In this document: one piece after another, positions 3,330 through 43,751 of the stretch | Layout of the letters: each line of letters opens with the position of its first letter | Numbering within the stretch: the first letter of the stretch is position 1 | Assembly (NCBI GenBank): GCA_965203725.1 | Contig: CBDBDH010000002.1 | Location: 264,215-328,214, forward strand | Source: Gammaproteobacteria bacterium | GTDB lineage: Bacteria; Pseudomonadota; Gammaproteobacteria; UBA4575 | Length of the DNA stretch: 64,000 bases | Direction: 5' to 3' | Program-made: the position numbers and the translations under genes | Notes under the pieces: generated by a model | The model's database searches: none | The model's input: the letters and a program-made list of their open reading frames with translations, nothing else | What the model was told of the DNA's origin: nothing

Positions 3330-4466
3330 TTGATGAAGCTTAAAACAGTGATCTCGATTCTGGGGCTGCTATTTGTCTGCATGTCCGTGCATGCAAAACC
3401 GTTCCCGATTCCTGCAGCTCCGAAATTCGGGGCATCCAGCTACATACTGATGGATTTTGCAAGCGGAAGTGTGTTGGTGGATCACAATTCGAAAGCGCGT
3501 GTAGAGCCCGCAAGCATCACAAAAATAATGACCGCCTATGTCGTGTACCATGCCCTGCAAAGAGGTGATGTGCGCCTGGACGATCAGGTTTTTGTCAGCG
3601 AGAAAGCTTGGCGCAGCATCGGTTCCAGGACCTTTGTCGACGTAGGAAGCAGGGTTTCCCTTGAAGACCTGCTGCTGGGCATGGTTGTACAGTCAGGCAA
3701 CGACGCCAGCATAGCGCTGGCTGAACATATTGCCGGAACTGAAGAGAGTTTCACGAGCATGATGAATGCCTACGCAGCTCAATTGGGCCTTGAGGACACC
3801 AGCTTCGTCAATGCAACGGGCCTGCCGGAGCCCAAGCATTACACGACCGCTTATGACATTGCCTTGCTTTCCCGCGCGATGATCAGGGAATTTCCACAAG
3901 AATATCAACGCTACGCGCAAAGGGAATTCACTTACAACGATATCAAGCAATACAATCGAAACCGTTTGCTTTGGCGTGACGATGCTGTAGACGGCATCAA
4001 AACCGGGTTTACCCGGGCTGCGCGTTACTGCCTGGCCGCCTCGGCCGCTCGCAAGGGCATGCGTTTGATTTCAGTAGTGATGGGCACAGACAGTCCCCGC
4101 TCCCGCATGGTAAACAGCCAGGCGTTGCTGAATTACGGGTTCAGGCACTACGAATCACACAAGCTGTACCAGGCAGACCAGGTCCTTGCCGAGCAGCGTA
4201 TATGGCAAGGGGAGTCGAAGCTGACTCCGCTGGGGCTGGATCAGGATCTTTTCGTGGCGATACCCCGTGGTCAATTCGACAATCTGAAAGCTGTCTCACA
4301 GGTTCCGCAGGACATCGTTGCACCGATTGCCAGGGGAGACCGGCTCGGGACGGTCAAGATCAGCTTCAAGGGCGAAGATATTGCCGAAAGGCCGCTCGTT
4401 GCCCTGCAGGCCAACCCGCTCGGGAACATCTGGCGACGCGTCGTGGATTTTTTTGTAAAATTTTGA
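3330..4466 (+). CDS. dacA: D-alanyl-D-alanine carboxypeptidase (PBP5/6 family)
   Basis: Signal peptide, SITK (SxxK) and SGN motifs, and a C-terminal PBP5 domain; 378 aa. Confidence 0.9.
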   Translation: MMKLKTVISILGLLFVCMSVHAKPFPIPAAPKFGASSYILMDFASGSVLVDHNSKARVEPASITKIMTAYVVYHALQRGDVRLDDQVFVSEKAWRSIGSRTFVDVGSRVSLEDLLLGMVVQSGNDASIALAEHIAGTEESFTSMMNAYAAQLGLEDTSFVNATGLPEPKHYTTAYDIALLSRAMIREFPQEYQRYAQREFTYNDIKQYNRNRLLWRDDAVDGIKTGFTRAARYCLAASAARKGMRLISVVMGTDSPRSRMVNSQALLNYGFRHYESHKLYQADQVLAEQRIWQGESKLTPLGLDQDLFVAIPRGQFDNLKAVSQVPQDIVAPIARGDRLGTVKISFKGEDIAERPLVALQANPLGNIWRRVVDFFVKF

Positions 4467-4519
4467 AACTTTCTGCTTTAGATGTGAATCAGGTTCCCGC
4501 TTTCTTAAATGGAGAGTAC

Positions 4520-5353
4520 ATGCCGCTTGAGGCATGCCGTGTCTCGCCGCTGGACCGTGGTTTCGTATTCGGCGATGCGGTATATGAACTGATCCCTGCT
4601 TATGCGCATCGCGCTTTTTGCCTGCCGCAGCACCTGGCAAGGCTTGAGCGAAGCCTGGGGCAGGTCCGCATTCAGGATCCCTATACACGGACACAGTGGG
4701 AAACCATGATTGGAAATCTCATCCAGCAATCGCAGAGTGGCGATCTGGCCGTTTACATCCAGGTGACCCGGGGGGTTGCCACACGAGATCACCCGTTCCC
4801 CGAAAATGCGGTTCCGACGGTGTTCGCCATGGCAAATCCGCTACCCGGCATTGCCGATGAGGCACTGCAAAACGGGGTTGCGCTGATCACGGTCAAGGAT
4901 ATTCGCTGGCAACGCTGCGACATCAAGGTGACAGGATTGCTGGCCAACATTCTGGCCAAGCAAGATGCATTGCAGTCCTCGGCCTCCGAAGCAATTCTGG
5001 TTCGCGACGGTTTTGCCTTGGAAGGCAGCGCCAGCAACCTGTTCGTCGTACGCGAAGGCATGGTCCACACGCACCCCAGGGACAATCAGATTCTGCCTGG
5101 CATAACACGCGACTTCGTTCTGGAATTGCTGACTGAGCTGGGGCTGGAATACCGCGAACAGGCGATTCCTGAAGAATGGCTATACTCGGCGGATGAGGTC
5201 TGGATCACAAGTTCTGCAAGAGAAGTCCTGCCCGCTGCAAAAATTGACCGGCATGTTGTAGGGAAAGGAGTTCCCGGAGAGCTTTGGAGGGACGTTTATG
5301 CGCTGTACCAGAAAAGGAAAGCATCCAACGGAGTGCGCTCTCAAGGTTCGTGA
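4520..5353 (+). CDS. Class IV (fold type IV) aminotransferase, D-amino-acid transaminase or aminodeoxychorismate-lyase-like
   Basis: ATG at 4520 is preceded by GGAGAG. The product MPLEACRVSPLDRGFVFGDAVYELIPAY... is typical of D-amino-acid or branched-chain aminotransferase family IV. The ORF-track version (from 4202) is an upstream read-through extension overlapping the dacA 3' end. Confidence 0.7.
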   Translation: MPLEACRVSPLDRGFVFGDAVYELIPAYAHRAFCLPQHLARLERSLGQVRIQDPYTRTQWETMIGNLIQQSQSGDLAVYIQVTRGVATRDHPFPENAVPTVFAMANPLPGIADEALQNGVALITVKDIRWQRCDIKVTGLLANILAKQDALQSSASEAILVRDGFALEGSASNLFVVREGMVHTHPRDNQILPGITRDFVLELLTELGLEYREQAIPEEWLYSADEVWITSSAREVLPAAKIDRHVVGKGVPGELWRDVYALYQKRKASNGVRSQGS

Positions 5354-5972
5354 TTTGGGGATACGGGAATATCTTCCCGTGTATGAAAGCATGCGCAGGT
5401 TCAATACCAGGCGCAGTACAGCCACTGCCGATGAATTCTGGTGTCTGCAGCATGCGCCTGTCGTCACGCTGGGGGCAAATTCCAGCCAAACGCACATTCA
5501 TCCCGGAATGGATGTGCCCGTGGTGTGCACGGACCGGGGCGGACAGGTCACCTACCATGCCCCGGGCCAGGCCGTGATCTACCTGCTGGTTGACCTTCGT
5601 CGAAAGGCCCTCGGTATCCGGAAGTTCGTACACCACATAGAGCAGGCCGTGGTTGACCTGCTGGCTGGCCACCAGGTTTTGGCATTTGCCCGAACCGATG
5701 CCCATGGCGTATACATAGGGGATGCAAAAGTTGCCTCGCTCGGTCTGAGGGTCAGTGGTGGCTGCAGTTACCATGGTGTAGCGCTCAATGTCGATATGGA
5801 CCTGGGTCCGTTTTCCCGCATGGATCCATGCGGATTCCCGGGGCAAGCCGTCACGCAGTTAAAAGACCATGGGATCGAGTCCAGCTGTCAGCAGATTCAT
5901 GCGGAATTGGCAATGCAATTGTGTGAACATCTCGATTACAAGAAAACGGACATAGAAACCATTGGCCAGTAA
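5298..5972 (+). CDS. lipB: Lipoyl(octanoyl) transferase LipB
   Basis: LipB family ([19 protein letters not shown]..., [14 protein letters not shown]). The start is uncertain because the first ATG overlaps the preceding gene by 56 nt. Confidence 0.8.
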
Positions 5973-6909
5973 GTCGCATCTAGCAAAACTTGGCGTGAAA
6001 CGGCGCGGAAGTGAAAAGGTCATTCATATTCCGGTCAAGCTGGAAGAGCCTTTGCAACACCTTCCGAAACCCGCGTGGCTTCGCGTGCGTGCGCCGACCG
6101 CCAAGGTAAAAACCCTGAAGAGACTGCTGAGAGAGCAGAAGCTGCACACGGTATGCGAGGAGGCCTCATGTCCAAACCTGACCGAGTGTTTCAGTCATGG
6201 CACGGCCACATTCATGATCATGGGGGATATCTGCACCCGCCGCTGTCCTTTTTGTGACGTGGCGCATGGCAGGCCGCTGGCCCTGGATGAGCAAGAGCCT
6301 GAACACCTGGCCCAGGCCATTGGGCATATGGGACTTCGCTATGTGGTCATTACATCCGTTGACCGCGATGATCTGCATGACGGGGGAGCCAGCCATTTCG
6401 TGAAGTGCATGCAGCGTATACGCGAGTGCTGTACAGAAACCAAAGTGGAAATTCTTGTGCCTGACTTTCGCGGACGCCTGGACCGTGCACTGCAAATTTT
6501 GTCACGGCAACCTGCAGACGTGTTCAATCATAACCTGGAAACTGTCCCGCGCCTGTATCCTTACGCCCGGCCCGGTGCGGATTACCGGCATTCACTGAAA
6601 TTGCTGCACGAATACAAAAAACAACACCCGCATACCCCTACAAAATCGGGCTTGATGCTGGGTCTGGGTGAGCGTACGGAGGAAGTGGTTGAGGTGATGA
6701 GGGATTTGCGTGCACATGAAGTAGACCGGCTTACCCTGGGACAATATCTGCAGCCAAGCCGCCATCACTTGCCCGTGCAACGCTATCTTGATCCAGGGGA
6801 GTTCGATCGGTTACGTCGCGTCGGTGAAGACCTGGGCTTCTGTCATGTGGCAAGCGGCCCGCTGGTCCGCTCCTCTTATCATGCAGATATTGAGGCGTAC
6901 GGGCACTGA
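5962..6909 (+). CDS. lipA: Lipoyl synthase LipA (radical SAM)
   Basis: [13 protein letters not shown] and the [10 protein letters not shown] cysteine clusters; 315 aa. Confidence 0.95.
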
Positions 6910-6989
6910 ACCCAGGGTCGATTTGCCGGACTGTTAAGTGACCAGGGCTTGAACCTGCGCCGAAGCGCTCGGGGATTCATCCGCCGGGG

Positions 6990-7664
6990 TCAGCCCGCAC
7001 CGTGATTCTGCAAGTGTCGCTCGGCTTCGCGAAGCCGTTCGGGGGTGCCAATGTCAAACCATGTCCCGGCATAATGTTCGGCACTTGCTTTTTCCTGGCC
7101 AATGGCAGAATGCAGGACGGGTGCCAGGGCGGTTTGCCCAACTGCTTGTTTCTCGAACAGCTCCGGCTTGTAGATACCGATGCCACTGAAGGTCAGAAAA
7201 CTCCCCCCCGCACTGCACGCCCTGCCGGATTCGCAGGCAAAGTCACCACTCGGGTGGTGTGCAGGGTTATCTACCAGCACCAGATGCGCCATGTCATGCA
7301 CCAGGCTGGGAAAGGAAAGAGGGTGGTCGCACCAGATATCACTGCTGATTACCAGAAACGGCTTGTCTCCCAGAAGCGGCAGGGCATGAACAATTCCTCC
7401 TGCTGTCCCTAACGGCTGTTCCCCTTCATGGGAATACTCGATGTGTACCCCGTAGCGTCCGCCATCCCCGAGCTTTCGCTGGATCATGTCTCCCAGATAG
7501 GAAAGATTGATGACGATTTCCCTGTGACCCGCGGATTCGAGCCTCGCCAGGTGATGTTCGATCAGGGATTTGCCCGCAAGCTTGATCAGAGGTTTCGGGA
7601 TTTGTTGAGTGAGAGGGCGCATTCGCTCCCCCAGGCCCGCGGACAACAGCATGCACTTCATCAT
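6990..7664 (-). CDS. murU: N-acetylmuramate alpha-1-phosphate uridylyltransferase-like nucleotidyltransferase (MurU)
   Basis: N-terminal LSAGLGERMRPLTQQIPKPL sugar-nucleotidyltransferase motif; immediately downstream of an AmgK-like kinase. Confidence 0.65.
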   Translation of the reverse strand: MMKCMLLSAGLGERMRPLTQQIPKPLIKLAGKSLIEHHLARLESAGHREIVINLSYLGDMIQRKLGDGGRYGVHIEYSHEGEQPLGTAGGIVHALPLLGDKPFLVISSDIWCDHPLSFPSLVHDMAHLVLVDNPAHHPSGDFACESGRACSAGGSFLTFSGIGIYKPELFEKQAVGQTALAPVLHSAIGQEKASAEHYAGTWFDIGTPERLREAERHLQNHGAG

Positions 7665-7666
7665 GA

Positions 7667-8644
7667 TCAGAAAATTACCTTTTCATCGATGAAGTCAGCC
7701 AGCTCATGGGTCTCCGGGTACTTTGGTGCAACGGATTTGATATACCCCAGGGTGCGGGGAATATCCTTGAGGTAACCCGGCTTTTTGTCACGCAGGTTAA
7801 GGCGCGCAAAGATTCCGATGGCCTTCAAATGTCGCTGGACCCCCATCAGGTCAAACCACTTCAGAAAGGTTTCGTCGCTGATGCGGGAAACGATGTTTTT
7901 TTCTGCAAGCCTGTCCCGGTACTTGAGTGCCCAGGCCTGCACGCGTTCATGGGGCCATTGAATGTAGCAGTCACGCAGTAATGAGACTGCATCATAGGTG
8001 AGTGGCCCGCAAACGGCATCCTGGTAATCGATAATGCCGGGCCAGTCCGTGTCGATTTTCATCAGATTGCGCGAATGGTAATCCCGATGAACGAAAACCT
8101 GTGGCTGTTCCAGCGCGTTGTTTTTCAGGTGCGCAAAGGCACGCCGTAAAATCTGCAAACTGGAATCCGACAGCTTGACATCGAGGAGCTGGACCAGGAA
8201 CCACTGCTGAAACAGCTCCATTTCCTGCAACAGCAGTTCCCGGCTGTATCTGGGCAGGCTGTCAGCGGAGACCTGCTGGATAACGGTCAGTGCTTCGAGT
8301 GCATCGCTGTACAGCTTGTCGGCATTTTCTGCATCGAGAATGTCCAGCAGCAGTGTATTGCCGAAGTCGTCCAGCAGGAAATATCCGGCATCCATGAAAC
8401 TGTAGTGGACATGGGGCACAGGCAGGCCTTCGGCTTCCAGCAGATGCGTTACCGTGGCAAAGGCCTCGTTCGACTCTTTTTCAGGTGGGGCATCAACAGC
8501 TATATACTGTCCCTGTTCAGACGAGAGCCTGAAGTACCGCCTGAAGCTTGCATCTTCAGAGGCCGGCTCAAGTGTGTACGGGACATCTCCGAATATCCCC
8601 TTGATCCATTCATGTAGCTGGGCGAGACGCGGGTCGGGATCCAT
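7667..8644 (-). CDS. amgK: Anomeric MurNAc/GlcNAc kinase AmgK-like (aminoglycoside-phosphotransferase fold)
   Basis: APH-fold kinase with VHRDYHSRNLM catalytic motif; paired with murU as in Pseudomonas cell-wall recycling bypass. Confidence 0.65.
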   Translation of the reverse strand: MDPDPRLAQLHEWIKGIFGDVPYTLEPASEDASFRRYFRLSSEQGQYIAVDAPPEKESNEAFATVTHLLEAEGLPVPHVHYSFMDAGYFLLDDFGNTLLLDILDAENADKLYSDALEALTVIQQVSADSLPRYSRELLLQEMELFQQWFLVQLLDVKLSDSSLQILRRAFAHLKNNALEQPQVFVHRDYHSRNLMKIDTDWPGIIDYQDAVCGPLTYDAVSLLRDCYIQWPHERVQAWALKYRDRLAEKNIVSRISDETFLKWFDLMGVQRHLKAIGIFARLNLRDKKPGYLKDIPRTLGYIKSVAPKYPETHELADFIDEKVIF

Positions 8645-8757
8645 TTTACGTGTCCAGGCAGGGGTGCAGTTCCAGGCAGCAACCGGATAGTCTGGGGTCA
8701 GGTTCCAAAGCCTCTGGTTTTGGCAAGGCCCGTCACCGCGTCTGGTGCATGCGGCAA

Positions 8758-9165
8758 TTACAGCAGGCTTACATTTTCAGCCTGGGGCCCTTTTGCACCT
8801 TGCACGACATCCATGGAAACTTTCTGACCCTCACGCAGTGATCTGCGGCCATTGCTGACGATAGACTTGTGATGTACAAAAACGTCTTCACCATTTTCCT
8901 GCTCAATAAAGCCAAAACCTTTCTTGTAGTTAAACCACTTGACAGTACCTCGGGCCTGCCGGGATGTAGTCTTTGGCTTGGCGTTTCTCCGGGCTCTCGT
9001 TCCGATGTTGCGGACCAGGCTGATCAATGCAGGTACGGCAAGGATAAACGCAATTACCAGTCCCCCGAAAATCAATAACTGGGCAGTGTCGCCGTCAATC
9101 AGGATAGCCAGTGCTATACCTGCCATGACACCCAGACTGATCAATATGGTGGGACGGATTTTCAT
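8758..9165 (-). CDS. Membrane-anchored cold-shock-domain protein (two N-terminal TM helices plus C-terminal CSD)
   Basis: C-terminal [30 protein letters not shown] is a canonical CspA-type CSD (RNP1-like KGFGFI). The N-terminal 60 aa form two hydrophobic helices. Confidence 0.6.
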
Positions 9166-9257
9166 GACACGTAATTTCTCCTGAGATCAGCTATAGGGGC
9201 TCAGTACTGGCAGTTCAATACCGCAGTTCGTACTGTGCATGATACCTGCCGCAATGT

Positions 9258-10577
9258 TCATTGAATAGTTTTGCTGTAAATTTTTGATTTGCGCATGTCA
9301 TCATATAGCACCTGTTTTTGCATAGGCAGGTCTTCGATTTTTGCGGATTCAAAACCCTGTTCCTGAAACCAGTGCTCGGTTTGCGTCGTCAGCACGAAAA
9401 GTTTCCTGAAGCCAGCCTTGCGGGCTTTGCTTTCCAGGTGCATCAGCATTTTGCTGCCGCGCCCGATGGACTGAAATTCCGGATGCACTGCAAGACAGCC
9501 AACTTCGGCGGCATTTTCTTCCGGGAAAGTGTACAGAATGCCGCAGGTCAAAAGTACGCCGTCGCGTTCTATGACATCAAAGCGGTCAATTTCAAGCTCC
9601 AACTGTTCGCGGGGACGTGCTACCAGGATCCCTTTTTCAATAAAAGGCTGTATGAGTTCGGCGATACCGTCCAGATCATCCAATGTGGCAGGCCTGATTT
9701 CCTCATAGGCTTGAGCGGTTACCAGCGTGGCGGCTCCGTCCAGACTGTAAAGCTCTTCCAGCAGCGTGCCCGGTTTTTCTGTGTCGACCAGGTGTACGTT
9801 CTTGATGTTTTTCGAGCATGCCTGGATTGCGACCCTCAAATAGTGCCCGGCCTCCTGCTCGTGCTCGGGCAGTTTTTCTACAAGCTGCCGGGCTTCATCG
9901 ATGCTGTAGTGATTTTCGCTTTGTTCTTGCTGTTTTTGAAGCCTGAATTGATCCAGTACCAGGATCAGTTTCTCACTTTGCAGTACGCATGCGGTGTGCG
10001 TCGCAAGTTCTGTACCTGATAAAAGGACCAGACCGTCGGCCGTCGTACGAGCCATGGGAGTCATCGCTGCAATGTTTCCCTTGTCCAGTTGCTGTTGCAG
10101 TGCAGTTTGGATGATGCTGCAGCTTTCCCCGAGCCGGGAGTCCACTTGGCCTTGCTTGTCAACGTCAGGGTCGGCCTTCAGGAAATCGCCACAGGTAACG
10201 TCCAGCCTGGCGCCTGCCAGCGGTGTATTGGCGAGGCTGGTAGAAAAAATTGCCTTTACGTTCTCGCACAGGTCGCTGGACACATTCCTGATCTCTTCTA
10301 CAGAGTCTGGATCGGTGACATGCGAAGTGCGGTGCAGCCCACCTTGGCCTGGATCCGTTGTTCCCTGGCAGTTCGATGTCCCGTCCCCGAGTACCAGCAC
10401 CAGCTTGGCGCCCAGCGTATGCATCAGCGCAAGGTCGCGAATGAGTGCATTCAGGCGGGTATCTGCCAGCAGAACACGGGTGTCGATATAGACCACGAAA
10501 GTTTTGCCGCGATGAGAGTGTATGTAATGGGCGGCTTGGCGAAAACTCCCGGTTTGAAACAGGGAAGTACTGTTCAT
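9258..10577 (-). CDS. argA: Amino-acid N-acetyltransferase (N-acetylglutamate synthase), AAK plus GNAT domains
   Basis: 439 aa. N-terminal HSHRGKTFVVYIDTRVL amino-acid-kinase fold and a C-terminal GNAT region, the ArgA architecture. Confidence 0.9.
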   Translation of the reverse strand: MNSTSLFQTGSFRQAAHYIHSHRGKTFVVYIDTRVLLADTRLNALIRDLALMHTLGAKLVLVLGDGTSNCQGTTDPGQGGLHRTSHVTDPDSVEEIRNVSSDLCENVKAIFSTSLANTPLAGARLDVTCGDFLKADPDVDKQGQVDSRLGESCSIIQTALQQQLDKGNIAAMTPMARTTADGLVLLSGTELATHTACVLQSEKLILVLDQFRLQKQQEQSENHYSIDEARQLVEKLPEHEQEAGHYLRVAIQACSKNIKNVHLVDTEKPGTLLEELYSLDGAATLVTAQAYEEIRPATLDDLDGIAELIQPFIEKGILVARPREQLELEIDRFDVIERDGVLLTCGILYTFPEENAAEVGCLAVHPEFQSIGRGSKMLMHLESKARKAGFRKLFVLTTQTEHWFQEQGFESAKIEDLPMQKQVLYDDMRKSKIYSKTIQ

Positions 10578-33977: not shown

Positions 33978-35396
33978 ATGAACCTGGACAATCTTGCAAA
34001 GGCCAAGATCCTGGTCATCGGGGATGTCATGCTGGACCAGTACTGGCTGGGCGAGACCAGCCGCATATCCCCCGAAGCCCCGGTCCCGGTCATCAATATC
34101 GAAGACATGGAAAACCGGTTGGGCGGTGCGGCCAATGTCGCAGCCAACGCCATCAGCGTGGGAGCCGACGTGACCCTGATCGGAATGGTCGGGCGCGATG
34201 AAAACGGCGACCGGCTGCTGGAGTTGCTGGATGCCACGAACATCCATACAAAAGTCATTCGCAAGGAGGACTACAGGACTTCCACCAAACTGCGCGTCGT
34301 CAGCCGTAACCAGCAACTGCTCAGGCTGGACCATGAAGACAGCCGCAAGGAGGCCGACAACACCGAGGTCCTGGAAGTGTGCGAACAGCAGATTTCCGGG
34401 CACGGAACCATCGTGATCTCGGATTATGACAAGGGGGCAGTGGCAGGAATTGAGCACATTATCGAAGCCGTACGCAAGGCCGGCAAGCGGATCATCGTAG
34501 ATCCGAAAGGGGCCTGCTTCGACAAGTACAAGAATGCAAGCATCATCACCCCGAACTACCAGGAGTTCATACAGGTTGCCGGTGAATGCACGGATGAGGA
34601 AGAGCTTGAGAACAAGGCACTCGGGATGTGCAGGGAACTGGACCTTGATGCCTTGCTGGTCACGCGAAGTGAACATGGCATGTCCTTGTTCATGCAAGGC
34701 CAGCCTGCCAGGCATTTCCCTACGCAGGCCAGGGAGGTCTACGATGTCACAGGAGCCGGAGATACCGTAGTGGGCCTGTTTGCCTCGGCGGTATCCGCCG
34801 ATTATCCAATTGCAGATGCGGTGAAAATCGCGAACCTGGGAGCGGGGATTGCGGTGAGCAAGCTGGGCACCGTGGCCGTGACGACTGAGGAGCTGGATTT
34901 CAGTTTGCAGGTCGCGGCCAGCAGAGGGAAACGGGTCGCTGACCTGGATGAATTGAAGCGGGTCGTGGCCGCGCTGAGGCGCAATAATGAAAAAGTCGTG
35001 TTCACCAACGGGTGTTTTGATCTGATCCACCGCGGCCATATCGCTTGCCTGCGCGATGCCAAGTCCAGGGGTGACTGCCTGATCGTGGCCATCAATGACG
35101 ATACTTCGGTAAGAAGCATCAAGGGGGACAGTCGTCCCGTGTGCAGTCTGCAAAACCGCATCGAGGTGCTTGAGGAGCTGAACTGCATTGACTGGCTCAT
35201 ACCGTTCTCCGAAGACACGCCCTTGACGCTGATCGAGGAACTGAAGCCCGATGTTTACGTCAAGGGTGGCGATTATGAAAAGGAGAAGCTGGCCGAATAC
35301 GAACTGGTCAGCAGCTACGGAGGGGAAGTTGTCATCTCGCCCTACGTGGAAGGCTGCTCGACCACCTCGATCATTGATTCCATTCAGAGCGCTTGA
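33978..35396 (+). CDS. hldE: Bifunctional D-beta-D-heptose 7-phosphate kinase / D-beta-D-heptose 1-phosphate adenylyltransferase
   Basis: 472 aa. An N-terminal PfkB-type kinase and a C-terminal cytidylyltransferase (FTNGCFDLIHRGH) give the HldE/RfaE architecture. The last approximately 15 codons lie within the island-border repeat. Confidence 0.95.
   Translation: MNLDNLAKAKILVIGDVMLDQYWLGETSRISPEAPVPVINIEDMENRLGGAANVAANAISVGADVTLIGMVGRDENGDRLLELLDATNIHTKVIRKEDYRTSTKLRVVSRNQQLLRLDHEDSRKEADNTEVLEVCEQQISGHGTIVISDYDKGAVAGIEHIIEAVRKAGKRIIVDPKGACFDKYKNASIITPNYQEFIQVAGECTDEEELENKALGMCRELDLDALLVTRSEHGMSLFMQGQPARHFPTQAREVYDVTGAGDTVVGLFASAVSADYPIADAVKIANLGAGIAVSKLGTVAVTTEELDFSLQVAASRGKRVADLDELKRVVAALRRNNEKVVFTNGCFDLIHRGHIACLRDAKSRGDCLIVAINDDTSVRSIKGDSRPVCSLQNRIEVLEELNCIDWLIPFSEDTPLTLIEELKPDVYVKGGDYEKEKLAEYELVSSYGGEVVISPYVEGCSTTSIIDSIQSA
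35343..35396. repeat. Left copy of an approximately 54-bp imperfect direct repeat (att-like) comprising the hldE 3' end
   Basis: CGTGGAAGGCTGCTCGACCACCTCGATCATTGATTCCATTCAGAGCGCTTGACT here and CGTGGAAGGTCGCTCGACAACCTCGATCATTGATTCCATTCAGAGTGCCTGACT at 41449-41503 differ at about 5 positions. Both copies encode ...VEGxSTTSIIDSIQSA*. Confidence 0.65.
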
Positions 35397-35445
35397 CTGC
35401 GAACTAGGCGGGCGGGAGTTCGAATCTTTCCGGGCGTGCCATTTT
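35397..35445 (+). other. tRNA 3'-end-like fragment (T-arm GGGAGTTCGAATCTTTCC plus acceptor ...GTGCCA); not a complete tRNA
   Basis: GGTTCGAATC-type T-loop and a terminal CCA are read in the sequence. No D-arm or anticodon arm precedes it (hldE coding sequence lies there). Probably an element-borne att remnant. Confidence 0.35.
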
Positions 35446-35720
35446 TTGTGACTCACGCTTGCTCTGGGGCTGAGGCTGTCCAATAGTATCGGGTTTACCT
35501 GTTTTTTTCTCAGGGGTGAGTTGCACCCGCACCGGCTTGCGCCGGTATATCCGCTGGGTGATCATGGTGTCCGCACGACCGAGGCGTTTCGAGGCTTCGA
35601 CCAAGCTGTTCGATTCGCTCGTGACTTTGACTTCAATCGTCTGCAGTAAATTGATGAGCTCTGGCTTCCTGAATCGCTTGCGTAGGGCGATCCCCCTGAC
35701 CCAACTTAGCAGAGTTTAGA
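35404..35720 (-). pseudogene. Tyrosine recombinase (phage integrase) C-terminal fragment
   Basis: Minus-strand translation ...LGQGIALRKRFRKPELINLLQTIEVKVTSESNSLVEASKRLGRADTMITQRIYRRKP... matches the R-H-R-Y integrase C-terminus (LGHxxxxxTxRYxH box). There is no N-terminal 250 aa; an unrelated AT-rich gene occupies that space. Confidence 0.5.
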
Positions 35721-35825: not shown

Positions 35826-35855
35826 TTGGCACTGTAATGGTTAGGTTCTTATAAT
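35826..35855 (+). promoter_or_regulatory. Sigma70-like promoter candidate (TTGGCA, 18-nt spacer, TATAAT) upstream of the island cargo operon
   Basis: Hexamers read directly in the sequence, about 55 nt upstream of the ATG at 35911. Confidence 0.35.
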
Positions 35856-35910: not shown

Positions 35911-36474
35911 ATGACTGATAAAAACCAAGATGCATGTTTATCAGCATTCAATTCAATTATATCTATTCTTTCTGATTTTAATAATGAAGATAAAAAGCAC
36001 GTTTTAGGTTCTGTTATTAACTGGCTAAAAATTTCTGATATAGGTTCCGGTTTAGGAAATGCTAAAGAGTCACCACTACAATCGAGTCCTTCAAGGGCAA
36101 TAGCAAATATTTCACTTGAATCAGATGTGTCCCCAAAGGACTTTCTATTAGAGAAACTCCCTGGATCGAACGTTGAGCGTGTTGCTTGTTTGGCATACTA
36201 TCTTACTCATTACAGAGATACCCCTCACTTCAAGACAACCGACATCAATAAATTAAATACCGAAGCTGCGCAACCAAAGTTCTCTAATCCAGCTGTTGCT
36301 GTGAATGATTCGTCAAAAGCAAGATTATTGGTTGCAAGCGGCAAAGGGAATAAGCAATTGAGTGCAATGGGAGAACAGTTTGTTCTGGCACTACCAAATC
36401 GCGATCAAGCTAAATCGATTCTGAACAAAATGAGACCAAAACGTAAAGCAAAAAAAAGAGCAAAAAGACAATAA
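35911..36474 (+). CDS. Hypothetical protein with strongly basic C-terminal tail (KMRPKRKAKKRAKRQ)
   Basis: 187-aa ORF with a start-proximal GGGGAAA ribosome-binding site, AT-rich codon usage unlike the host core, and no recognisable domain. First gene of a three-gene co-oriented cassette. Confidence 0.5.
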   Translation: MTDKNQDACLSAFNSIISILSDFNNEDKKHVLGSVINWLKISDIGSGLGNAKESPLQSSPSRAIANISLESDVSPKDFLLEKLPGSNVERVACLAYYLTHYRDTPHFKTTDINKLNTEAAQPKFSNPAVAVNDSSKARLLVASGKGNKQLSAMGEQFVLALPNRDQAKSILNKMRPKRKAKKRAKRQ

Positions 36475-36502
36475 AGATAAATTGATAAATTGTTCTGGAA
36501 AA

Positions 36503-37498
36503 ATGGCTGGGCGACATAAAGCAATTCGGATTTCTATTTTCAACCATAAAGGTGGTGTAGGTAAGACAACTCTTACGGTTAATTTAGCTGCAGCTTTGGC
36601 AGAAGCAGGGAAAAAAGTTCTATTAATTGATTCGGACCCACAATGCAATATTACTCAATACTTGTTTGATGACTCTACAATTGATGGTTTGTTGGAAAAA
36701 TCTGATGAAAGTGATGGAGAGACAATCTGGTCAGCAGTTAAGCCGGTTGTAGAAGGTGAGGGGAGAATATCAGACGTAGGTGTATACGAAACTGCCGTTT
36801 CTAATTTATATATCCTTCCTGGTGATATTCAGTTATCAGAATTTGAAATTGAACTCTCTAATTATTGGACAGCATGTATTAAAGGCCAAAGGAGAGGATT
36901 TAAGGAAATTTCTACCCTAAGTCATCTCGCGAATATGTATGCTAAAAATGATGATATTGATTTTATATTTTTTGATACAGGACCAAATATTGGCCCATTA
37001 AACCGTATAATTTTATTGGATTGTGACTATTTTTTAGTTCCAGGAGCATGTGATCTTTTTTCGGTTAGAGCATTAAGAACTTTAGGTTCTTCAATGACGA
37101 AATGGATTAAAGAATGGGCTGAAATCTCAAAAAAATCAACAGGCGACATTAATATTCCACCTGGCTGCCCTAAATTTCTTGGGTATATACCCCAAGGATT
37201 TAGGGTCTATGGACAAGGCATGGCAAGGTGGCCTTCTAAATATCATGCAAGGTTTCGAAAAGAACTCCAAAAATACTTACTGACACCACTAAGGCGAATA
37301 TCTTCAGATCTAATTAGGACATCCGGGTCTGAGTCGAAACTAGGAGAAATAAAAGATTTTGCGCATTTAGTTCAAAAATCACAAGAACAGCGTGTGCCAC
37401 TATGGCTTGTTGCTGGTGGGCCGGTGTATCAAACCGAAGAAGCGCATGATGCTTTTTCTAAGATGGCTGATGAACTAATCACTCGAACAGAGGAATAG
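36503..37498 (+). CDS. ParA/MinD-family P-loop ATPase with long C-terminal extension
   Basis: Deviant Walker A IRISIFNHKGGVGKTTLTVNLAAALAEAGKKVLLIDSDPQCN. ATG at 36503; 331 aa, about 80-100 aa longer than canonical ParA. Confidence 0.8.
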   Translation: MAGRHKAIRISIFNHKGGVGKTTLTVNLAAALAEAGKKVLLIDSDPQCNITQYLFDDSTIDGLLEKSDESDGETIWSAVKPVVEGEGRISDVGVYETAVSNLYILPGDIQLSEFEIELSNYWTACIKGQRRGFKEISTLSHLANMYAKNDDIDFIFFDTGPNIGPLNRIILLDCDYFLVPGACDLFSVRALRTLGSSMTKWIKEWAEISKKSTGDINIPPGCPKFLGYIPQGFRVYGQGMARWPSKYHARFRKELQKYLLTPLRRISSDLIRTSGSESKLGEIKDFAHLVQKSQEQRVPLWLVAGGPVYQTEEAHDAFSKMADELITRTEE

Positions 37499-37504
37499 TA
37501 AATA

Positions 37505-38215
37505 GTGGCCAGAATTACTGAGAGCCGCCATCGTGAGATCGACAAAGCAGTATCAAAATATGAAAGCATACGCACAGACTTTGATAATCTAGGTGAAACC
37601 ACTAACAGATTACTAGTTAGTGATGCACGACTAAAGCATTATATTCACTCTAGTAAATATAGAACAAAAGATCCCAAAAGATTAAAAGAAAAAATCATAA
37701 GAAAAACAAGTGATCGATTAAAGTTGCCAAAAGATGAGAGAGCCCCATTAATAACTGCTAGAAATCTTCTGGAGACTGTGGAAGATCTAGCTGGAATTCG
37801 ACTCCTTCATTTGCATACGCAACAAATGTCAAATATACATCCAGTAATAGTCGAAATACTTGAAGGAAATCGCTATCAAATTATCGATAGGCCAGTCGTA
37901 TATATATGGGATACTGAGAACAGAGAGTTCTTCAAAGGTATTGGCATAAAACCAATCGAACGCCTAGATAAAGAAATGTATACAAGTGTTCATTATGTTG
38001 TTAGTTCACCTCAACGACCAGAAATGAGAATTGAAATACAGGTGCGAACACTGATGGAAGAAGTTTGGGGAGAAGTATCTCACATTATAAATTACCCTCA
38101 GAAAACTGAAATTACAGCCTGCCGTGAGCAACTTAGCGCCCTTGCAAGATTTACTTCTGGGTGCAGTCGTTTGGTTGACTCAATTTTTGCCACTAAAGCT
38201 GAAAGTGAAAAATAA
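37505..38215 (+). CDS. RelA/SpoT-domain nucleotidyltransferase (small-alarmone-synthetase-like, single domain)
   Basis: DLAGIRLLHLHTQQ (DxxGxRxx), SVHYVVSSP (G/S-x-x-S/H-x-H) and EIQVRTLMEEVWGEVSH (EIQIRT...WAE..H) are the synthetase-fold signature motifs. 236 aa; begins 6 nt after the ParA-like gene. Confidence 0.75.
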   Translation: MARITESRHREIDKAVSKYESIRTDFDNLGETTNRLLVSDARLKHYIHSSKYRTKDPKRLKEKIIRKTSDRLKLPKDERAPLITARNLLETVEDLAGIRLLHLHTQQMSNIHPVIVEILEGNRYQIIDRPVVYIWDTENREFFKGIGIKPIERLDKEMYTSVHYVVSSPQRPEMRIEIQVRTLMEEVWGEVSHIINYPQKTEITACREQLSALARFTSGCSRLVDSIFATKAESEK

Positions 38216-38258
38216 TTTTTAGAAAGGTCTGATCAATTTAGTTGCTGAGAGGCGATTT

Positions 38259-38513
38259 CTACAGATCATGGATTTCAAGCCAGTCTAGAAGATCAAAAGG
38301 CCTGGAATCCGTGGCCTGTGCCGGGTAAATGCGGATCAATGCAGGCGATGGCACATCCCTCCAATTTTTCAAGTGCACGCCCCCACCAGTTCCTTCTAGG
38401 GAAATGATCCGCCCCATGTCTTCCTGGAACGCTTCCTTGCGGGTCTTCTTGCTGTACTGGTCGAATCTGGTATCAGAAAAGGCTGGCGGACGTATGGGAT
38501 AAATCTCTATCAT
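38259..38513 (-). CDS. Hypothetical small protein (84 aa); has a degraded paralogue at about 42000-42145
   Basis: ORF on the opposite strand between the SAS-like and macro genes. Its 3' end and downstream approximately 70 bp are repeated, diverged, next to the XRE gene at 42145. Confidence 0.3.
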   Translation of the reverse strand: MIEIYPIRPPAFSDTRFDQYSKKTRKEAFQEDMGRIISLEGTGGGVHLKNWRDVPSPALIRIYPAQATDSRPFDLLDWLEIHDL

Positions 38514-38599
38514 TGAATCCTTGACAGAGATTATGATTCTTGTGGGTTAATTAATCAGAGGTTCCTTAAAATTGAAGCTCAATCAAGCTGGTATTTCTA

Positions 38600-39058
38600 A
38601 TGATCACGTTTACCCAAGGTAATCTGCTTGAAGCCGATGTTGAGGCAGCAGTGAACACCGTGAACACTGTTGGCATCATGGGAAAAGGTATTGCCCTGAT
38701 GTTCAAGGAGCGGTTTCCGCAGAATTTTGAAGCCTACGCACATGCTTGTGAGGACAAGGAGGTGCGTATCGGGAAAATGTTTGTTAGTGAGAACAGAGAG
38801 TTTTTCGGTCCGAAGTGGATAGTCAATTTTCCAACTAAAACGCACTGGCGAGCAAATACACAGCTTGAATGGATAGAAAAAGGTCTTCAAGACCTCATCT
38901 GGGTCATCAAGGAAAAGAATATCCGTTCGATTGCAATCCCGCCTCTTGGTTGTGGCAATGGTGGCCTCAATTGGGATGACGTTCGGCCTCTTGTCGTTGC
39001 AGCTTTAGAGAAAGTTGAGGGCCTTGAGGCAGTGGTTTATGAGCCTACTGCCAAATAA
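38600..39058 (+). CDS. Macro-domain protein (ADP-ribose / O-acetyl-ADP-ribose hydrolase family)
   Basis: [39 protein letters not shown] and [18 protein letters not shown] correspond to the macrodomain N-x(6)-GGGVA and AFPxISTGxYG motifs; 152 aa. Confidence 0.8.
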
Positions 39059-39380
39059 CAGGATGTCGCGAAACGTACCAGTGTAGAAAAGTTTACGCCG
39101 GCCCAAGCTCTCATGGTAGCGTCCATCAACAAGACCGCCCTCCCGTTGCGCGGGCGTGGGCTGTTTCGAAAAGGATGACGCGTTACAGTCACTCAATCGA
39201 GGAGAACTAGGAGCATCAGCCGGAAACGATACTCAGGCGTCGCCACGCCCCGAGTCTTTGATCGCGGAGATTGGTGAGGATGGCCTTTTTCGTGGCGAAG
39301 CAGAGCAGTTCCCAAGGATATATCAGCAGATCGCTGAAGTTAGCATTTGACTGTACACTCTTGATTTATTTCACCAATAG

Positions 39381-40502
39381 GTGTACTTTCATCAAATGGT
39401 GAAAGTACCTGAAACAGAGAAACAGGTAGAGGGTGCGATGGTGGACGCGGTGCGTGCCCTCCTTGAGCATGTCCCGAACACACAGATCATTGGCGTTCGC
39501 CACGCGCTGCATCTCAAGGCCGACTACCGGCTCGATGCCAGGATCGATATAGATCACGATGGAAATCGCTATGCGCTCCTCATGGAGATCAAGTCAGATG
39601 GAGCGCCGCGCTTTGCCCGTTCCGCGGTCTATCAGCTCGAGAGCTACATCGCGCATTTGCATCGATCCGAACACCAGGACGACACCGGGCAGTTCATTCC
39701 GATGCTGGTGAGCCCCTATTTGTCTCCGGTGTCGCGCTCCATCTGCCTCGATCACAATGTCGCCTACCTCGACTTCTACGGTAACGCCCAGCTTGCTTTC
39801 GGCTCCGTCTATATCGAGCGGTCCGTACCGGACAGACCGAAGTCTGAAATCCGCACCCAGCGGTCATTGTTCACTCCAAGGGCGGGCGCAATCCTGCGAG
39901 TTCTCCTGCGCGACCCGACCCGCGCATGGCGCGTCACGGACTTGGCTGAGGCAGCCAACTCCAGTCTCGGGCACGTAAGCAATGTCCGCCAAGCACTGCT
40001 CAACCGGGAATGGATCGAAATACGAGACGACGGTCTCGTCCTTGTCCAGCCGGATGCGCTGCTGAAGTCTTGGCGCGAAAACTACCGTCAACCCGCCGGT
40101 CGTCACGTCAGCGGATACACAAGCCTGCACGGGGACCAGCTGCGCAATCGCCTGTCGGGAAGCCTGAACCCGGGACCGCAACCCCCGCGTGCAATCTGCG
40201 CATTAAACTCGGCTGCCCAGTGGATTGCGCCATACGTCCGAGGCGGCACGCAGAGCTTTTACGCAGACGAACCCGGGGTGCAGATGCTGCAAGAAACGCT
40301 GCAACTGACTCATGCCGCCCAAGGTGCCAACGTGATCCTTCGCATCCTCAAGGATGAAACCCTGTTTGAAGACGCCGTCCAGCCGGTGCCGGGCATCTAC
40401 TGCGCAAATCCGGTAGTCACCTACCTCGATCTGTGGAATAGCAACGATCGGGGTCGAGAGGCTGCCGACCATCTGGCCACGAAGTGTTTTTCATGGTTGT
40501 GA
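39381..40502 (+). CDS. Putative wHTH-containing partner or regulator of the DUF1814 nucleotidyltransferase (AbiEi-like?)
   Basis: High-GC ORF overlapping the downstream gene by 19 nt. The internal segment RVLLRDPTRAWRVTDLAEAANSSLGHVSNVRQAL looks like a winged helix. Start uncertain (GTG 39381, ATG 39396 or ATG 39438). Confidence 0.4.
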   Translation: MYFHQMVKVPETEKQVEGAMVDAVRALLEHVPNTQIIGVRHALHLKADYRLDARIDIDHDGNRYALLMEIKSDGAPRFARSAVYQLESYIAHLHRSEHQDDTGQFIPMLVSPYLSPVSRSICLDHNVAYLDFYGNAQLAFGSVYIERSVPDRPKSEIRTQRSLFTPRAGAILRVLLRDPTRAWRVTDLAEAANSSLGHVSNVRQALLNREWIEIRDDGLVLVQPDALLKSWRENYRQPAGRHVSGYTSLHGDQLRNRLSGSLNPGPQPPRAICALNSAAQWIAPYVRGGTQSFYADEPGVQMLQETLQLTHAAQGANVILRILKDETLFEDAVQPVPGIYCANPVVTYLDLWNSNDRGREAADHLATKCFSWL

Positions 40503-41350
40503 GGGAACTCCAGGCCGCTGGTGAGTACGATGACCGGACGACAGCCGCGGTCAAGTCCGTACTCATCGAGATCGGCCAGATTCTTGGCAGCTTCAAAGGC
40601 AAGTTTGCGATCATCGGCGGCGCTGTTCCCTGGCTGTTGCTGGGCGAAGCCGAGATGCAGCACGTCGGCACCGTCGATGTCGACCTCGGCCTCGATCCGG
40701 CTGCTTTGGGCGATAGTGAATACGCTCGGCTCGTCGAAGCCCTCCGGGAACACGGCTACCTTCAACGAGACAATTTGCGGCGCTTTCAGTTGGTACGGAC
40801 TGTCCCGGCCAGTGATGGCGGGCCCGACATTGACGTCGTCGTCGATTTCTTGATGCCGCGCGATGCCGAGATTACAAGGAATACGCCGCCGCTGATCAGC
40901 GAATTTGCCGTCCAGCGTGCGGACGGCGCAGACCTGGCGCTCAACTTCTATCAAATGGTCGCTATCGAGGGACACATGCCGGACGGTGCCCAAAATCGCG
41001 TCAACATCGCGGTGGCATCGATCCCAGCCCTTCTCGCTATGAAAGGTTACGCCATCGCCAACCGTCTGAAACGCAAGGATGCCTACGACATCTACTTCTC
41101 CGTGAGGAACTTCCCGGAGGGAATTGATGCCCTCGTCGAAGCAACCCGGCCACTTCTCGATGTCGAGTCGGCCCTCCAGGGGTACCGCTCTATCGGTGAC
41201 AAGTTTCGGAATGTCGAAGATTTCGGACCGTCGAGCGTGAGAACGTTCGTTGAGGGTTCCGACCTGCTTGGCGACCGTACGGCAGACCAATGGCAGCAGG
41301 ATGCCTTTGGACAGGTCGACGCCTGGCTCAGGGGCCTGGGACTGAAATAG
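40484..41350 (+). CDS. Nucleotidyltransferase of the DUF1814 / AbiEii-AbiGii toxin family
   Basis: FAIIGGAVPWLLLGEAEMQHVGTVDVDLG matches the hGG...D-x-D minimal nucleotidyltransferase motif of DUF1814 proteins; 288 aa. Confidence 0.65.
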   Translation: MFFMVVRELQAAGEYDDRTTAAVKSVLIEIGQILGSFKGKFAIIGGAVPWLLLGEAEMQHVGTVDVDLGLDPAALGDSEYARLVEALREHGYLQRDNLRRFQLVRTVPASDGGPDIDVVVDFLMPRDAEITRNTPPLISEFAVQRADGADLALNFYQMVAIEGHMPDGAQNRVNIAVASIPALLAMKGYAIANRLKRKDAYDIYFSVRNFPEGIDALVEATRPLLDVESALQGYRSIGDKFRNVEDFGPSSVRTFVEGSDLLGDRTADQWQQDAFGQVDAWLRGLGLK

Positions 41351-41448: not shown

Positions 41449-41503
41449 CCTGCGTGGAAGGTCGCTCGACAACCTCGATCATTGATTCCATTCAGAGTGC
41501 CTG
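41449..41503. repeat. Right copy of the approximately 54-bp direct repeat (displaced original hldE 3' end / att site)
   Basis: See the left copy. Here the sequence is non-coding in context yet retains the hldE C-terminal reading frame up to TGA. Confidence 0.65.
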
Positions 41504-41536
41504 ACTTCAGCAGTGACACCTGTTCAGGCTTGCCTC

Positions 41537-41836: not shown

Positions 41837-42144
41837 CGATGGTTTCATCCCATACAACCCAGCATGAGACAGGATGCAGCAGCCTATGGCCTACACGTTT
41901 ACTGAGCGGTAAGCCCGTAAGCTTTATCCAGAGTTCACTGTGGGGGTGGCCCGATGAATGAGGCCCATCGGATCCCAAACCATCAAGGGAGGTCTGATTT
42001 AGTTTCCGAGAGGTGATTTCTGCAGATCATGGAGTTCAGCCGGTCCAGAGGATCAATAAGAATGCTGTCGGCGGCCATCGCTCTCAAAATGCAGCTGACC
42101 GACAATACGCTTTGCCTGCCCAAGTGCGACGATGGCTTCAGGCA

Positions 42145-42534
42145 TCAGAAGCCGACTCCTTCATCGTCCACGCTAGCACTTTTTGAATCGCTTCGGCGAT
42201 TGGGTGCGAGTTGATCAGGTATCTTTCTCCGCTTAGTTCCAATTCGCTTGGGTAACAGGTTGCGCTCCAGCAGTAATGCCGTATCGTCCGAGGCGGGATC
42301 AAGCAGGTCGCCGATACGGTCGATTTCTCCAAGAACCAGGCATGCCATCGCCAGGGTTCCCGTACTGACACCGTCATCGCCTTTTTCAAGGCGCGTGATC
42401 GTACGGGCTGACACACCAACACGGTCGGCAAAATCCTGGACAGCAATCCTGCGCTTCAATCGTGCTGTTTTCAGGTTCTCAGCCATCTGGCGCAATGCTA
42501 TTTGTGCACGTTTGGATTTTATTTTGTCTGACAT
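42145..42534 (-). CDS. XRE-family helix-turn-helix transcriptional regulator (antitoxin-like)
   Basis: RAQIALRQMAENLKTARLKRRIAVQDFADRVGVSARTITRLEKGD is a Cro/C1-type HTH. Its stop overlaps (ATGA) a short degraded downstream ORF. Confidence 0.7.
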   Translation of the reverse strand: MSDKIKSKRAQIALRQMAENLKTARLKRRIAVQDFADRVGVSARTITRLEKGDDGVSTGTLAMACLVLGEIDRIGDLLDPASDDTALLLERNLLPKRIGTKRRKIPDQLAPNRRSDSKSASVDDEGVGF

Positions 42535-43209: not shown

Positions 43210-43437
43210 ATGACGAACTGGACAGACTGTCCTGCGGTGGAACGTAATCCCCGCAAGATCAGTGGCGACTGGGCCTTCGCGGGAACCCGGGTGCCGGTAT
43301 ATGCCCTTTTCGAGAACATCGAGAGCGGCGCCACTGTCAAGGAGTTTCTTGAATGGTACCCCGAGGTGAAGGCGTGGCAGGTTGCCGCTGTCCTCAAACA
43401 CGAAGCTGAATCCCTCAAGACGTTCGCCGAGGCGTGA
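43210..43437 (+). CDS. DUF433-family protein (putative antitoxin)
   Basis: AAAGGAGGA ribosome-binding site. ISGDWAFAGTRVPVYALFENIESGATVKEFLEWYPEV is the DUF433 core. The stop overlaps the GTG of the next ORF. Confidence 0.7.
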   Translation: MTNWTDCPAVERNPRKISGDWAFAGTRVPVYALFENIESGATVKEFLEWYPEVKAWQVAAVLKHEAESLKTFAEA

Positions 43438-43751
43438 AAATCCTGTTTGACCACGGGACGCCAGCGCCCCTTAGGCGACACCTCGAAGGACATATCGTGG
43501 ACCGTTCCGCAGAGAAGGGATGGGAGTTGCTAGAGAATGGAGAACTGATCCGCGGGGCTGAAGAAGACGGCTATGAAATCATCGTCACCACGGACCAGAA
43601 CATGCGGCACTAGCAAAACCTGGCCAGTAGCAAGTTGGCAATCATCGTGCTGATGGCCACGGCATGGCCACGCGTGCAGCATCGAACGAAAGAGGTCCTT
43701 GAGGCCATCGAGGAAGTGCGTCCGGGCGAGGTTCGGGAAGTCCCGATCTGA
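43434..43751 (+). pseudogene. DUF5615 (PIN-like, Mut7-C type) partner gene interrupted by an in-frame TAG at 43611-43613
   Basis: MKILFDHGTPAPLRRHLEGHIVDRSAEKGWELLENGELIRGAEEDGYEIIVTTDQNMRH is followed by a TAG stop. The frame then continues in the family-typical way (...KLAIIVLMATAWP...) to TGA at 43749-43751. Confidence 0.5.

Follow-up and report, generated by a model that had tools for sequence, protein, structure and literature searches.

Within a 64,000-nucleotide (nt) stretch of a Gammaproteobacteria bacterium genome (lineage UBA4575; contig CBDBDH010000002.1, positions 264,215 to 328,214 of the forward strand; hereafter referred to as the window), three tightly packed and co-oriented genes (designated A, B and C) encode, respectively, a small protein with a predicted winged-helix domain, an ATPase of the ParA/MinD type, and a single-domain RelA/SpoT-type synthetase. 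The A-B-C operon is, with near certainty, a conserved mobile unit. The reading that we favor, at a probability of roughly 0.55, is that of one self-contained mobile operon that acts as a conflict system, with the growth-arresting synthetase being gated by the ATPase and a presumed DNA-binding adaptor. An initial annotation of this DNA had proposed a module of up to four genes, the fourth being a macrodomain open reading frame (ORF) located downstream of gene C. The A-B-C core of that proposal proved to be strictly co-conserved, but the macrodomain ORF falls outside the module, being missing at all related loci.

Conservation of the operon and its three proteins

A pattern-based scan with alignment of gene C relatives, covering one genome per species (185,579 species), yielded 197 confirmed matches, and 80 loci were retrieved. 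When the proteins of the window were searched against these loci via phmmer, gene B was found directly upstream of gene C in 80 out of 80, and gene A was found upstream of gene B (same strand, same order) in all 74 loci with enough upstream DNA; in the remaining six, the contig ends before gene A could appear. Reciprocally, when metagenome loci were anchored on gene A, genes B and C followed in each of the 53 whose downstream DNA extends over 1.9 kb or more. This co-conservation across genomes means that the adjacency of the long ParA and RelA/SpoT genes is not a peculiarity of a single strain, and it rules out the alternative offered in the initial annotation, i.e., that a partition module sits beside an orphan synthetase by chance. 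In Variovorax sp. RO1, the called cassette genes overlap by 1 and 4 nt. All-against-all clustering of 775 flanking ORFs revealed no fourth conserved gene (e.g., an alarmone hydrolase or Nudix gene), with no family present in more than five loci.

Judged by their record titles, the loci stem from at least 18 phyla. The lineages comprise Verrucomicrobiota, Planctomycetota, Acidobacteriota, Nitrospirota, Nitrospinota, Desulfobacterota, Omnitrophota, Sumerlaeota, Hydrogenedentota, Chloroflexota, Bacteroidota, Ignavibacteriales, Binatia, Marinimicrobia, Myxococcota, Gemmatimonadota, Alpha-, Beta- and Gammaproteobacteria, and one archaeal bin. The loci occupy scattered chromosomal sites with unrelated flanks, few integrases, and no common element backbone. 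In 62 of 70 loci, the guanine-plus-cytosine (GC) content of the cassette was more than 3 points below that of its flanks; the median difference was –9 points, and the cassette never had the higher value. Among 72,556 plasmid records there were one close and 10 distant relatives of gene C, the close one being located on a 1.68-Mb replicon and apparently frameshifted, and no close relative was present among 50,697 deposited phage genomes. About 13 of 145 immediate neighbors matched defense models (a tally made from overlapping family counts), including DUF1156 methylases (four times), SNF2/PLD helicases (three times), and the S and M subunits of type I restriction-modification (R-M) systems (three times each).

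A number of copies have decayed. In locus L026 (positions 3698–8699), inserted DNA has broken the ATPase gene into three pieces and the synthetase gene carries a frameshift, so that both core genes are broken. In two other loci only the ATPase gene is visibly disrupted: it is split in two in L078 (positions 360–2648), and its reading frame excludes the Walker A region in L081 (positions 6200–8654), a copy of the two-gene type described below that stems from Caballeronia sp. NK8 and is probably a pseudogene. Moreover, protein P0119 (388 amino acids [aa], encoded on an 82,652-nt metagenome contig) joins the first ca. 225 residues of the ATPase to the last ca. 160 residues of the synthetase. This apparent ParA::RelA/SpoT fusion was not used as "Rosetta stone" evidence, since it is devoid of the N-terminal ATP-binding motif of the synthetase, and it probably reflects an internal deletion that inactivates both genes.

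Gene B is the best conserved of the three cassette genes (homologues being 53–70% identical to the window protein, vs. 43–81% for gene C and 33–53% for gene A). Its real start is likely the ATG codon given in Table 1, judging from database protein P0241 and from the family alignment. Gene B matches Pfam family PF13614 (AAA_31; 4.7e-33) as well as PF01656 (CbiA), and the RelA_SpoT and Macro families that had likewise been anticipated in the initial annotation were recovered from the other proteins (see below). Three motifs are invariant in 35 homologues: Walker A (NHKGGVGKTT), which is of the deviant ParA/MinD type and carries the signature lysine, Walker A′ (DSDPQCN), and Walker B (D..DTGPN).

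The closest solved structure to gene B is the uncharacterized protein 3pg5 (2.3e-44), with Soj scoring just 4.7e-19. The 3pg5 protein is a 361-aa structural-genomics target, of which the N-terminal 215 residues are spanned by the match, and its genomic neighbors might reveal more variants of the ATPase-plus-effector theme. Gene B is about 80 aa longer than Soj-type ParAs (somewhat less than the excess of ca. 100 aa claimed initially), with the surplus spread over an insertion and the C-terminal half. Although its match to the "ParA-like partition protein" family PHROG 164 is strong (1.2e-43), its scores fall below the cut-offs of the NCBIfam partition-ParA models: 65.8 bits vs. 180 for NF041546, where the match covers the P-loop only (residues 17–58), and 63.9 bits vs. 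348 for TIGR03453 (residues 17–174). Together with the near-absence of the cassette from plasmids, this sets the ATPase apart from bona fide partition ParAs.

Gene C matches the RelA_SpoT family (PF04607; 1.1e-14, with 55.1 bits vs. a cut-off of 27), and the motifs quoted in the initial annotation are indeed present in the translations (KGGVGKTT in gene B; DLAGIR, SVHYVV and EIQVRT...W.E..H in gene C). Alignment of 32 homologues revealed residues K51, R53, K55, D94, G97, R99, Y159, S161, H163, E177, Q179, R181, T182, W188, H193 and Y197 to be invariant, which includes the catalytic residues, among them the Asp of DxxGxR and the Glu of ExQxRT. The synthetase motifs align with those of RelP, the sole motif change in the family being the replacement of the Arg of the GYRSLH motif by Thr. 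The AlphaFold model (mean pLDDT confidence score of 93) consists of the synthetase fold and one terminal helix (residues 204–235) and nothing else, this conserved C-terminal helix carrying two invariant cysteines.

Structural comparison of the model retrieved RelP and RelQ as best matches (E of ca. 1e-9, TM-score up to 0.75 relative to the target), followed more weakly by CapRel, an exported synthetase, and long RelA/SpoT enzymes. A profile search of solved structures returned only RelP and RelQ, and no chain of a toxic synthetase at E ≤ 0.01. The slightly greater resemblance to RelP/RelQ than to CapRel leans, if weakly, towards nucleotide synthesis rather than tRNA modification. Gene C is presumed to be the effector of the operon, with intact catalytic motifs and a predicted pyrophosphokinase activity.

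The gene A protein matches neither Pfam nor NCBIfam, and, given its predicted domain layout (Table 1), is likely a DNA-binding adaptor or regulator. Its family is similar in size to that of gene C (2046 vs. 1833 clusters at 90% identity), and, with clustering at 50% identity, the gene A profile retrieved 401 clusters at E ≤ 1e-30, 762 at E ≤ 1e-10 and 1521 at E ≤ 1e-3, all with members of ca. 120–300 aa. An operator or centromere upstream of gene A was considered but found to be unsupported, since inverted repeats in 149 such upstream regions were no longer than in shuffled sequence (6.99 arm matches for the best repeat vs. 6.78 after shuffling).

A two-gene sister form and comparison with known systems

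The IMG/VR viral contigs contained one three-gene locus as well as 20 loci in which a ParA-like gene (365–400 aa) is followed by a RelA/SpoT gene (218–315 aa; all sizes being longest-ORF lengths), without a detectable homologue of gene A. This two-gene form is represented at loci L083–L103. About half of the two-gene viral loci have P2-type portal, terminase, gpA or gpS genes in their flanks, and at others the pair adjoins SIR2_2 and HSDR_N proteins. The two-gene form was also found in 7 of 5,426 complete Escherichia coli genomes. In E. coli J31 (NZ_CP053787.1, positions 1454564–1456347; locus L184, positions 8662–10445), the pair is located between the replication gene A/DinI and the portal gene Q of a P2-like prophage, and is annotated as "ParA family protein" (WP_089588522.1) and "RelA/SpoT domain-containing protein" (WP_176599854.1). 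Over their full length, genes B and C of the window are 27% and 38% identical to this pair.

The cassette and the E. coli pair have both core proteins and their order in common, and likewise their nature as AT-rich accessory cargo and a C(R/K)EQ..LAR..G.G..L.DSI motif in the C-terminal helix of the RelA/SpoT protein. They differ in that the E. coli pair lacks gene A, has a longer ATPase (365–400 aa), and is borne by prophages of enterobacteria, whereas the three-gene cassette is chromosomal and found in environmental phyla. Rousset et al. (2022; PMC9122126) showed that the cos-proximal P2 hotspot acts as a reservoir for anti-phage systems. The combination of ParA/AAA_31 with RelA_SpoT figures in their Table S5 as entry 110, with number 29 and no functional note, and a term search did not find it in their table of tested systems (PMC9122126). 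The claim that the module is undescribed thus needs a qualification, in that its two-gene sister has been listed, though with neither a function nor a test. Apart from this entry, neither form turned out to be described when the literature was searched for ParA, RelA/SpoT and toxic synthetases in combination.

Neither form was called by PADLOC-DB v2.0.0, either as a named or as a candidate system, and its only matches were a P-loop-length one to PDC-M28B and a weak partial one to PDC-S33. The absence of a system-level match in PADLOC, NCBIfam or PHROGs agrees with the initial impression that no named system is involved. Menshen, PANGU and NetFlax were considered as identities for the cassette and set aside as different systems.

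With the toxic small alarmone synthetases (toxSAS; i.e., FaRel, FaRel2, PhRel, PhRel2 and CapRel), gene C shares a single-domain synthetase fold of ca. 230 aa (PMC7229694, PMC9712102, PMC11782079). Like the cassette, these toxins are encoded in conserved two- or three-gene operons on mobile DNA and have intact catalytic motifs, and CapRel is among the structural matches of gene C. Indeed, single-domain RelA/SpoT enzymes in such operons have been found to be toxins (PMC7229694). The partners differ, however: toxSAS are paired with PAD1-Panacea, D27, a small alarmone hydrolase, or a fused pseudo-zinc-binding domain (pseudo-ZBD), whereas gene C is accompanied by a ParA-type ATPase and a winged-helix protein, which are unlike the known toxSAS antitoxins (PMC10440598).

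In type I PANGU, the nucleoid-associated protein Pag1A is paired with the synthetase Pag1B/GRel, an effector that is non-toxic alone and is switched on by its DNA-bound partner (bioRxiv 10.64898/2026.04.06.716658). Since a DNA-associated partner activates Pag1B, PANGU offers a conceptual precedent for gating of an alarmone synthetase by the state of DNA. It nevertheless comprises two genes and no ATPase, and Pag1B has a C-terminal acidic DNA-mimic domain that is missing from the gene C model.

Control of a toxic effector by a nucleotide-hydrolyzing sensor or scaffold, as proposed here, is known from PARIS (AriA/AriB), Septu (PtuAB), Gabija and Menshen (NsnABC) (PMC9122126, PMC10440598, PMC12065111), and Menshen moreover has the same succession of a DNA-binding first gene, an ATPase, and an effector. 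These systems nevertheless combine ABC/OLD-type ATPases with nuclease effectors, while the cassette encodes a ParA/MinD (SIMIBI) ATPase and a predicted pyrophosphokinase, and none of their PADLOC models matches the cassette proteins. With ParABS and type Ib partition systems (ParA/Soj with ParB, ParG or a TubR-like protein), the cassette shares the deviant Walker A motif and a small DNA-binding partner with a basic flexible tail. It departs from them in having the adaptor gene first, in lacking a ParB domain, in scoring under the partition cut-offs, in being almost absent from plasmids, and in its obligate RelA/SpoT linkage. Finally, RelP and RelQ (PDB 6ewz, 6fgj and 5dec) are the best sequence and structure matches of gene C, with all five synthetase motifs aligned, at an identity of ca. 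20% and with the Arg of GYRSLH being Thr in gene C. RelP and RelQ are vertically inherited housekeeping genes of Firmicutes, without an ATPase partner.

The island that carries the operon

In the window, the region of the operon has a GC content of 36–46% (over 35.5–39 kb) vs. 55–62% on both flanks, in line with the AT-rich character remarked on initially. The initial coordinates of the three genes and the macro ORF were likewise borne out (Table 1), as were an attachment (att)-like repeat and an Abi-type neighbor. A 58-nt direct repeat, the copies of which are 90% identical, duplicates the last codons of hldE, and the repeat pair brackets a 6.1-kb island. The integrase remnant thought to accompany this repeat (minus-strand frame, ca. 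35404–35715) was based on visual resemblance only, and neither its 66-aa ORF nor the extended 103-aa frame gave a Pfam signal for an integrase, even at E ≤ 10.

Table 1. Features of the operon and its surroundings (positions in the window)
Feature	Position	Strand	Description
Left att-like repeat copy	35341–35398	+	58 nt; equals the hldE 3′ end and marks the island boundary
tRNA-like segment	35407–35441		just past the left att copy
Candidate sigma-70-like promoter	35826–35855	+	TTGGCA, 18-nt spacer, TATAAT; 11 of 12 consensus matches
Gene A	35911–36474	+	187 aa; helical hairpin (2–39), disordered linker (44–68), winged-helix domain (ca. 75–160), basic C-terminal tail (175–187)
Gene B	36503–37498	+	deviant-Walker-A ParA/MinD-type ATPase, 331 aa; likely ATG start at 36503; longest ORF (36482–37498) starts from TTG 36482
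Gene C	37505–38215	+	single-domain, small alarmone synthetase-like, 236 aa; GTG start after GAGGAA (ribosome-binding site)
Interleaved repeat, first copy	38225–38296		72-nt repeat; follows gene C and overlaps the end of the antisense ORF
Small antisense ORF	38259–38513	–	84 aa; no Pfam match, no assignable family
Macro ORF	38600–39058	+	TAA stop at 39056–39058
darG pseudogene	38600–39140		macrodomain, in-frame TAA, ca. 27 further DarG-like codons, then truncation
AbiEi_2/AbiEii pair	39381–41350		373 and 288 aa, 19-nt overlap; intact-looking
Right att-like repeat copy	41449–41506	+	90% identical to the left copy; encodes a variant hldE C-terminus
Interleaved repeat, second copy	41990–42056		82% identical to the first copy; downstream of the XRE-type gene
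XRE-type helix-turn-helix gene	42145–42534	–
DUF433/DUF5615 pair	43210–43613		75 aa, and truncated 59 aa (vs. a 110-position profile)

The macro ORF matches the Macro family (PF01661; 1.7e-23) and, much more strongly, the NCBIfam DarG equivalog model (1.2e-78), be it over positions 1–150 of 338 only; the PADLOC DarG model behaves likewise. When the sequence was read past the TAA stop codon, the DarG match reached model position 180 and its score rose from 265 to 282 bits. The darG frame was therefore interrupted by a stop codon and subsequently truncated near position 39140, where the GC content rises. A darT gene was not found: the 385-nt gap upstream of the macro ORF is devoid of a long open frame on the plus strand, and the ORFs within it have no Pfam match. 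No macro homologue was present in any of the 80 genome loci, and none of the metagenome and viral loci gave a macro match. What had been taken for a stand-alone macrodomain thus corresponds to the N-terminal 150 residues of DarG in a pseudogene, and its candidacy as a fourth component or antitoxin was rejected. The macro ORF is unrelated debris of a darTG module.

The AbiEi/AbiEii pair has a host-like GC content (ca. 60%), because of which the att-bounded island looks mosaic. The copies of the second direct repeat alternate with those of the att repeat, which suggests that the site has undergone several successive insertions or rearrangements. Just outside the island, the DUF433/DUF5615 pair looks like a toxin-antitoxin (TA) type module and would be further TA debris in the region. 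ARAGORN and Rfam found no tRNA or other RNA at the att site (33–46 kb and 34.5–45 kb). The segment GGCGGGCGGGAGTTCGAATCTTTCCGGGCGTGCCA, which was not called by either tool, resembles a tRNA T-arm and 3′ acceptor end (CCA) and may be the relic of a tRNA-type attachment site from an earlier element. The candidate promoter, which lies 56 nt ahead of gene A, is no more than a match to the consensus, and promoter-like sites in the whole region were no more frequent than in shuffled sequence.

A probable conflict role and its alternatives

A conflict system is the best reading of the operon because the sister form sits in a defense hotspot, because the cassette habitually forms low-GC islands, because R-M, DUF1156 and helicase genes are clearly enriched among its neighbors, though they are a minority there, and because its context in the window holds AbiE and darG debris. 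This reading is strengthened by the fact that synthetases in conserved small operons are toxins elsewhere (PMC7229694). A conflict role as such, be it phage defense of the abortive-infection type or a TA-like function, appears probable to us, and the specific gating mechanism outlined below is a more tentative proposal that falls somewhat short of an even chance.

Within this mechanism, gene C would be the effector, the active form of which moves pyrophosphate from ATP onto a purine nucleotide, giving (p)ppGpp or (p)ppApp, or, less likely, onto the 3′ end of tRNA; either product would arrest growth. Gene B would be an ATP-dependent dimerizing switch that either holds gene C inactive or activates it, by analogy with the gating ATPases of PARIS, Septu and Menshen (PMC10440598, PMC12065111), and its presence in both the three-gene and the two-gene form marks it as the obligatory partner. 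Gene A would be a DNA-bound adaptor that tunes the ATPase cycle of gene B or its association with DNA, as ParB-type partners do for ParA. It could thereby make release of the effector depend on a cue related to DNA, e.g., foreign DNA or nucleoid damage (cf. PANGU; bioRxiv 10.64898/2026.04.06.716658).

Several observations weigh against this interpretation. Validated toxic synthetases resemble gene C less, in both sequence and structure, than do RelP and RelQ, which are non-toxic housekeeping enzymes, and the Arg-to-Thr change in GYRSLH leaves its acceptor substrate uncertain. No conserved operator-like inverted repeat was found 5′ of gene A. The cassette is rare (197 confirmed matches in 185,579 species genomes), and most of its immediate neighbors are ordinary metabolic genes, with the copy of Variovorax sp. 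RO1 being surrounded by metabolic and regulatory genes. Moreover, toxicity, neutralization, the product of the enzyme and protection against phages are all features that we infer.

The same operon architecture, being conserved, overlapping and TA-like, could also befit a classical TA or addiction module without a dedicated immune role, in which gene C is constitutively toxic, and gene A and/or gene B serves as antitoxin and autorepressor, stabilizing the island. The layout of gene A, with a DNA-binding domain and disordered parts, resembles that of many type II antitoxins, the island of the window is full of TA pieces (AbiE, darG and DUF433/DUF5615), and small alarmone synthetases encoded in conserved operons of two or three genes have turned out to belong to TA systems (PMC7229694). 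Nevertheless, the two-gene sister lacks gene A, which can therefore not be the universal antitoxin, and a 330-aa ATPase with invariant catalytic motifs would be an unusually elaborate one, ATPases of that sort acting as sensors in PARIS and Septu (PMC10440598). The P2 hotspot location also argues for an anti-phage role. We consider a pure TA module unlikely, though it is the most serious of the alternatives. A TA role fits most of the data, and TA and defense roles are compatible with each other.

The similarity of gene C to housekeeping RelP and RelQ, and the placement of the operon among metabolic and regulatory genes in some genomes, would suit a physiological signaling module, i.e., a DNA-regulated or spatially regulated alarmone synthetase for stress adaptation of the host. 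Such a function is hard to reconcile with a sporadic and rare distribution over at least 18 phyla, a GC content consistently below that of the host, a sister form that is prophage cargo at a hypervariable defense hotspot, and the existence of pseudogenized copies (L026, L078 and Caballeronia), and we regard it as improbable. Still less credible is a role in partition or positioning, by which the operon would maintain a mobile element, with gene B as ParA, gene A as centromere-binding adaptor, and the RelA/SpoT protein as a passenger or post-segregational killer. Gene B is a bona fide deviant Walker A protein of the ParA/MinD class with a PHROG 164 match, and gene A is small, DNA-binding by prediction, and basic-tailed like ParG, TubR and omega-type adaptors. 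However, gene C is never missing from A-B loci (53 of 53) and is thus no passenger, and the cassette is nearly absent from plasmids, has no close relative in phage records, and shows neither a common element backbone nor more than a few integrases. The scores of gene B far under the NCBIfam cut-offs point in the same direction, as does the vicinity of the operon, in which neither a repeat array nor centromere-like repeats were seen.

Taking the conflict reading one step further, both forms may represent one unnamed and widespread anti-phage immune system, in which a ParA/MinD ATPase has been repurposed as the sensor or switch of an alarmone synthetase. It would read cellular or invading DNA via the winged-helix adaptor and trigger alarmone-mediated (or tRNA-directed) growth arrest. 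We offer this wider proposal with reserve, as one that is slightly more apt to fail than to hold.

The building blocks of the cassette and its overall logic are of known kinds; its ParA-type partner and winged-helix adaptor are new. Members of the ParA/MinD class are known for positioning cargo on the nucleoid, and we found no report in the literature that links them to alarmone synthesis or phage defense. As CapRel and PANGU illustrate, small RelA/SpoT enzymes are coming to be recognized as effectors of immunity, and their restraint and triggering are understood for few partners. The relative in E. coli prophages occupies a hotspot where most cargo proved to be antiviral, and cultured carriers allow direct testing, i.e., E. 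coli J31 and six other complete-genome E. coli strains for the sister form, as well as Variovorax sp. RO1, Corallococcus aberystwythensis AB050A and Paraflavitalea sp. CAU 1676. If true, the proposed function would provide bacterial immunity with a new class of sensor, and alarmone synthesis with a new regulatory input.

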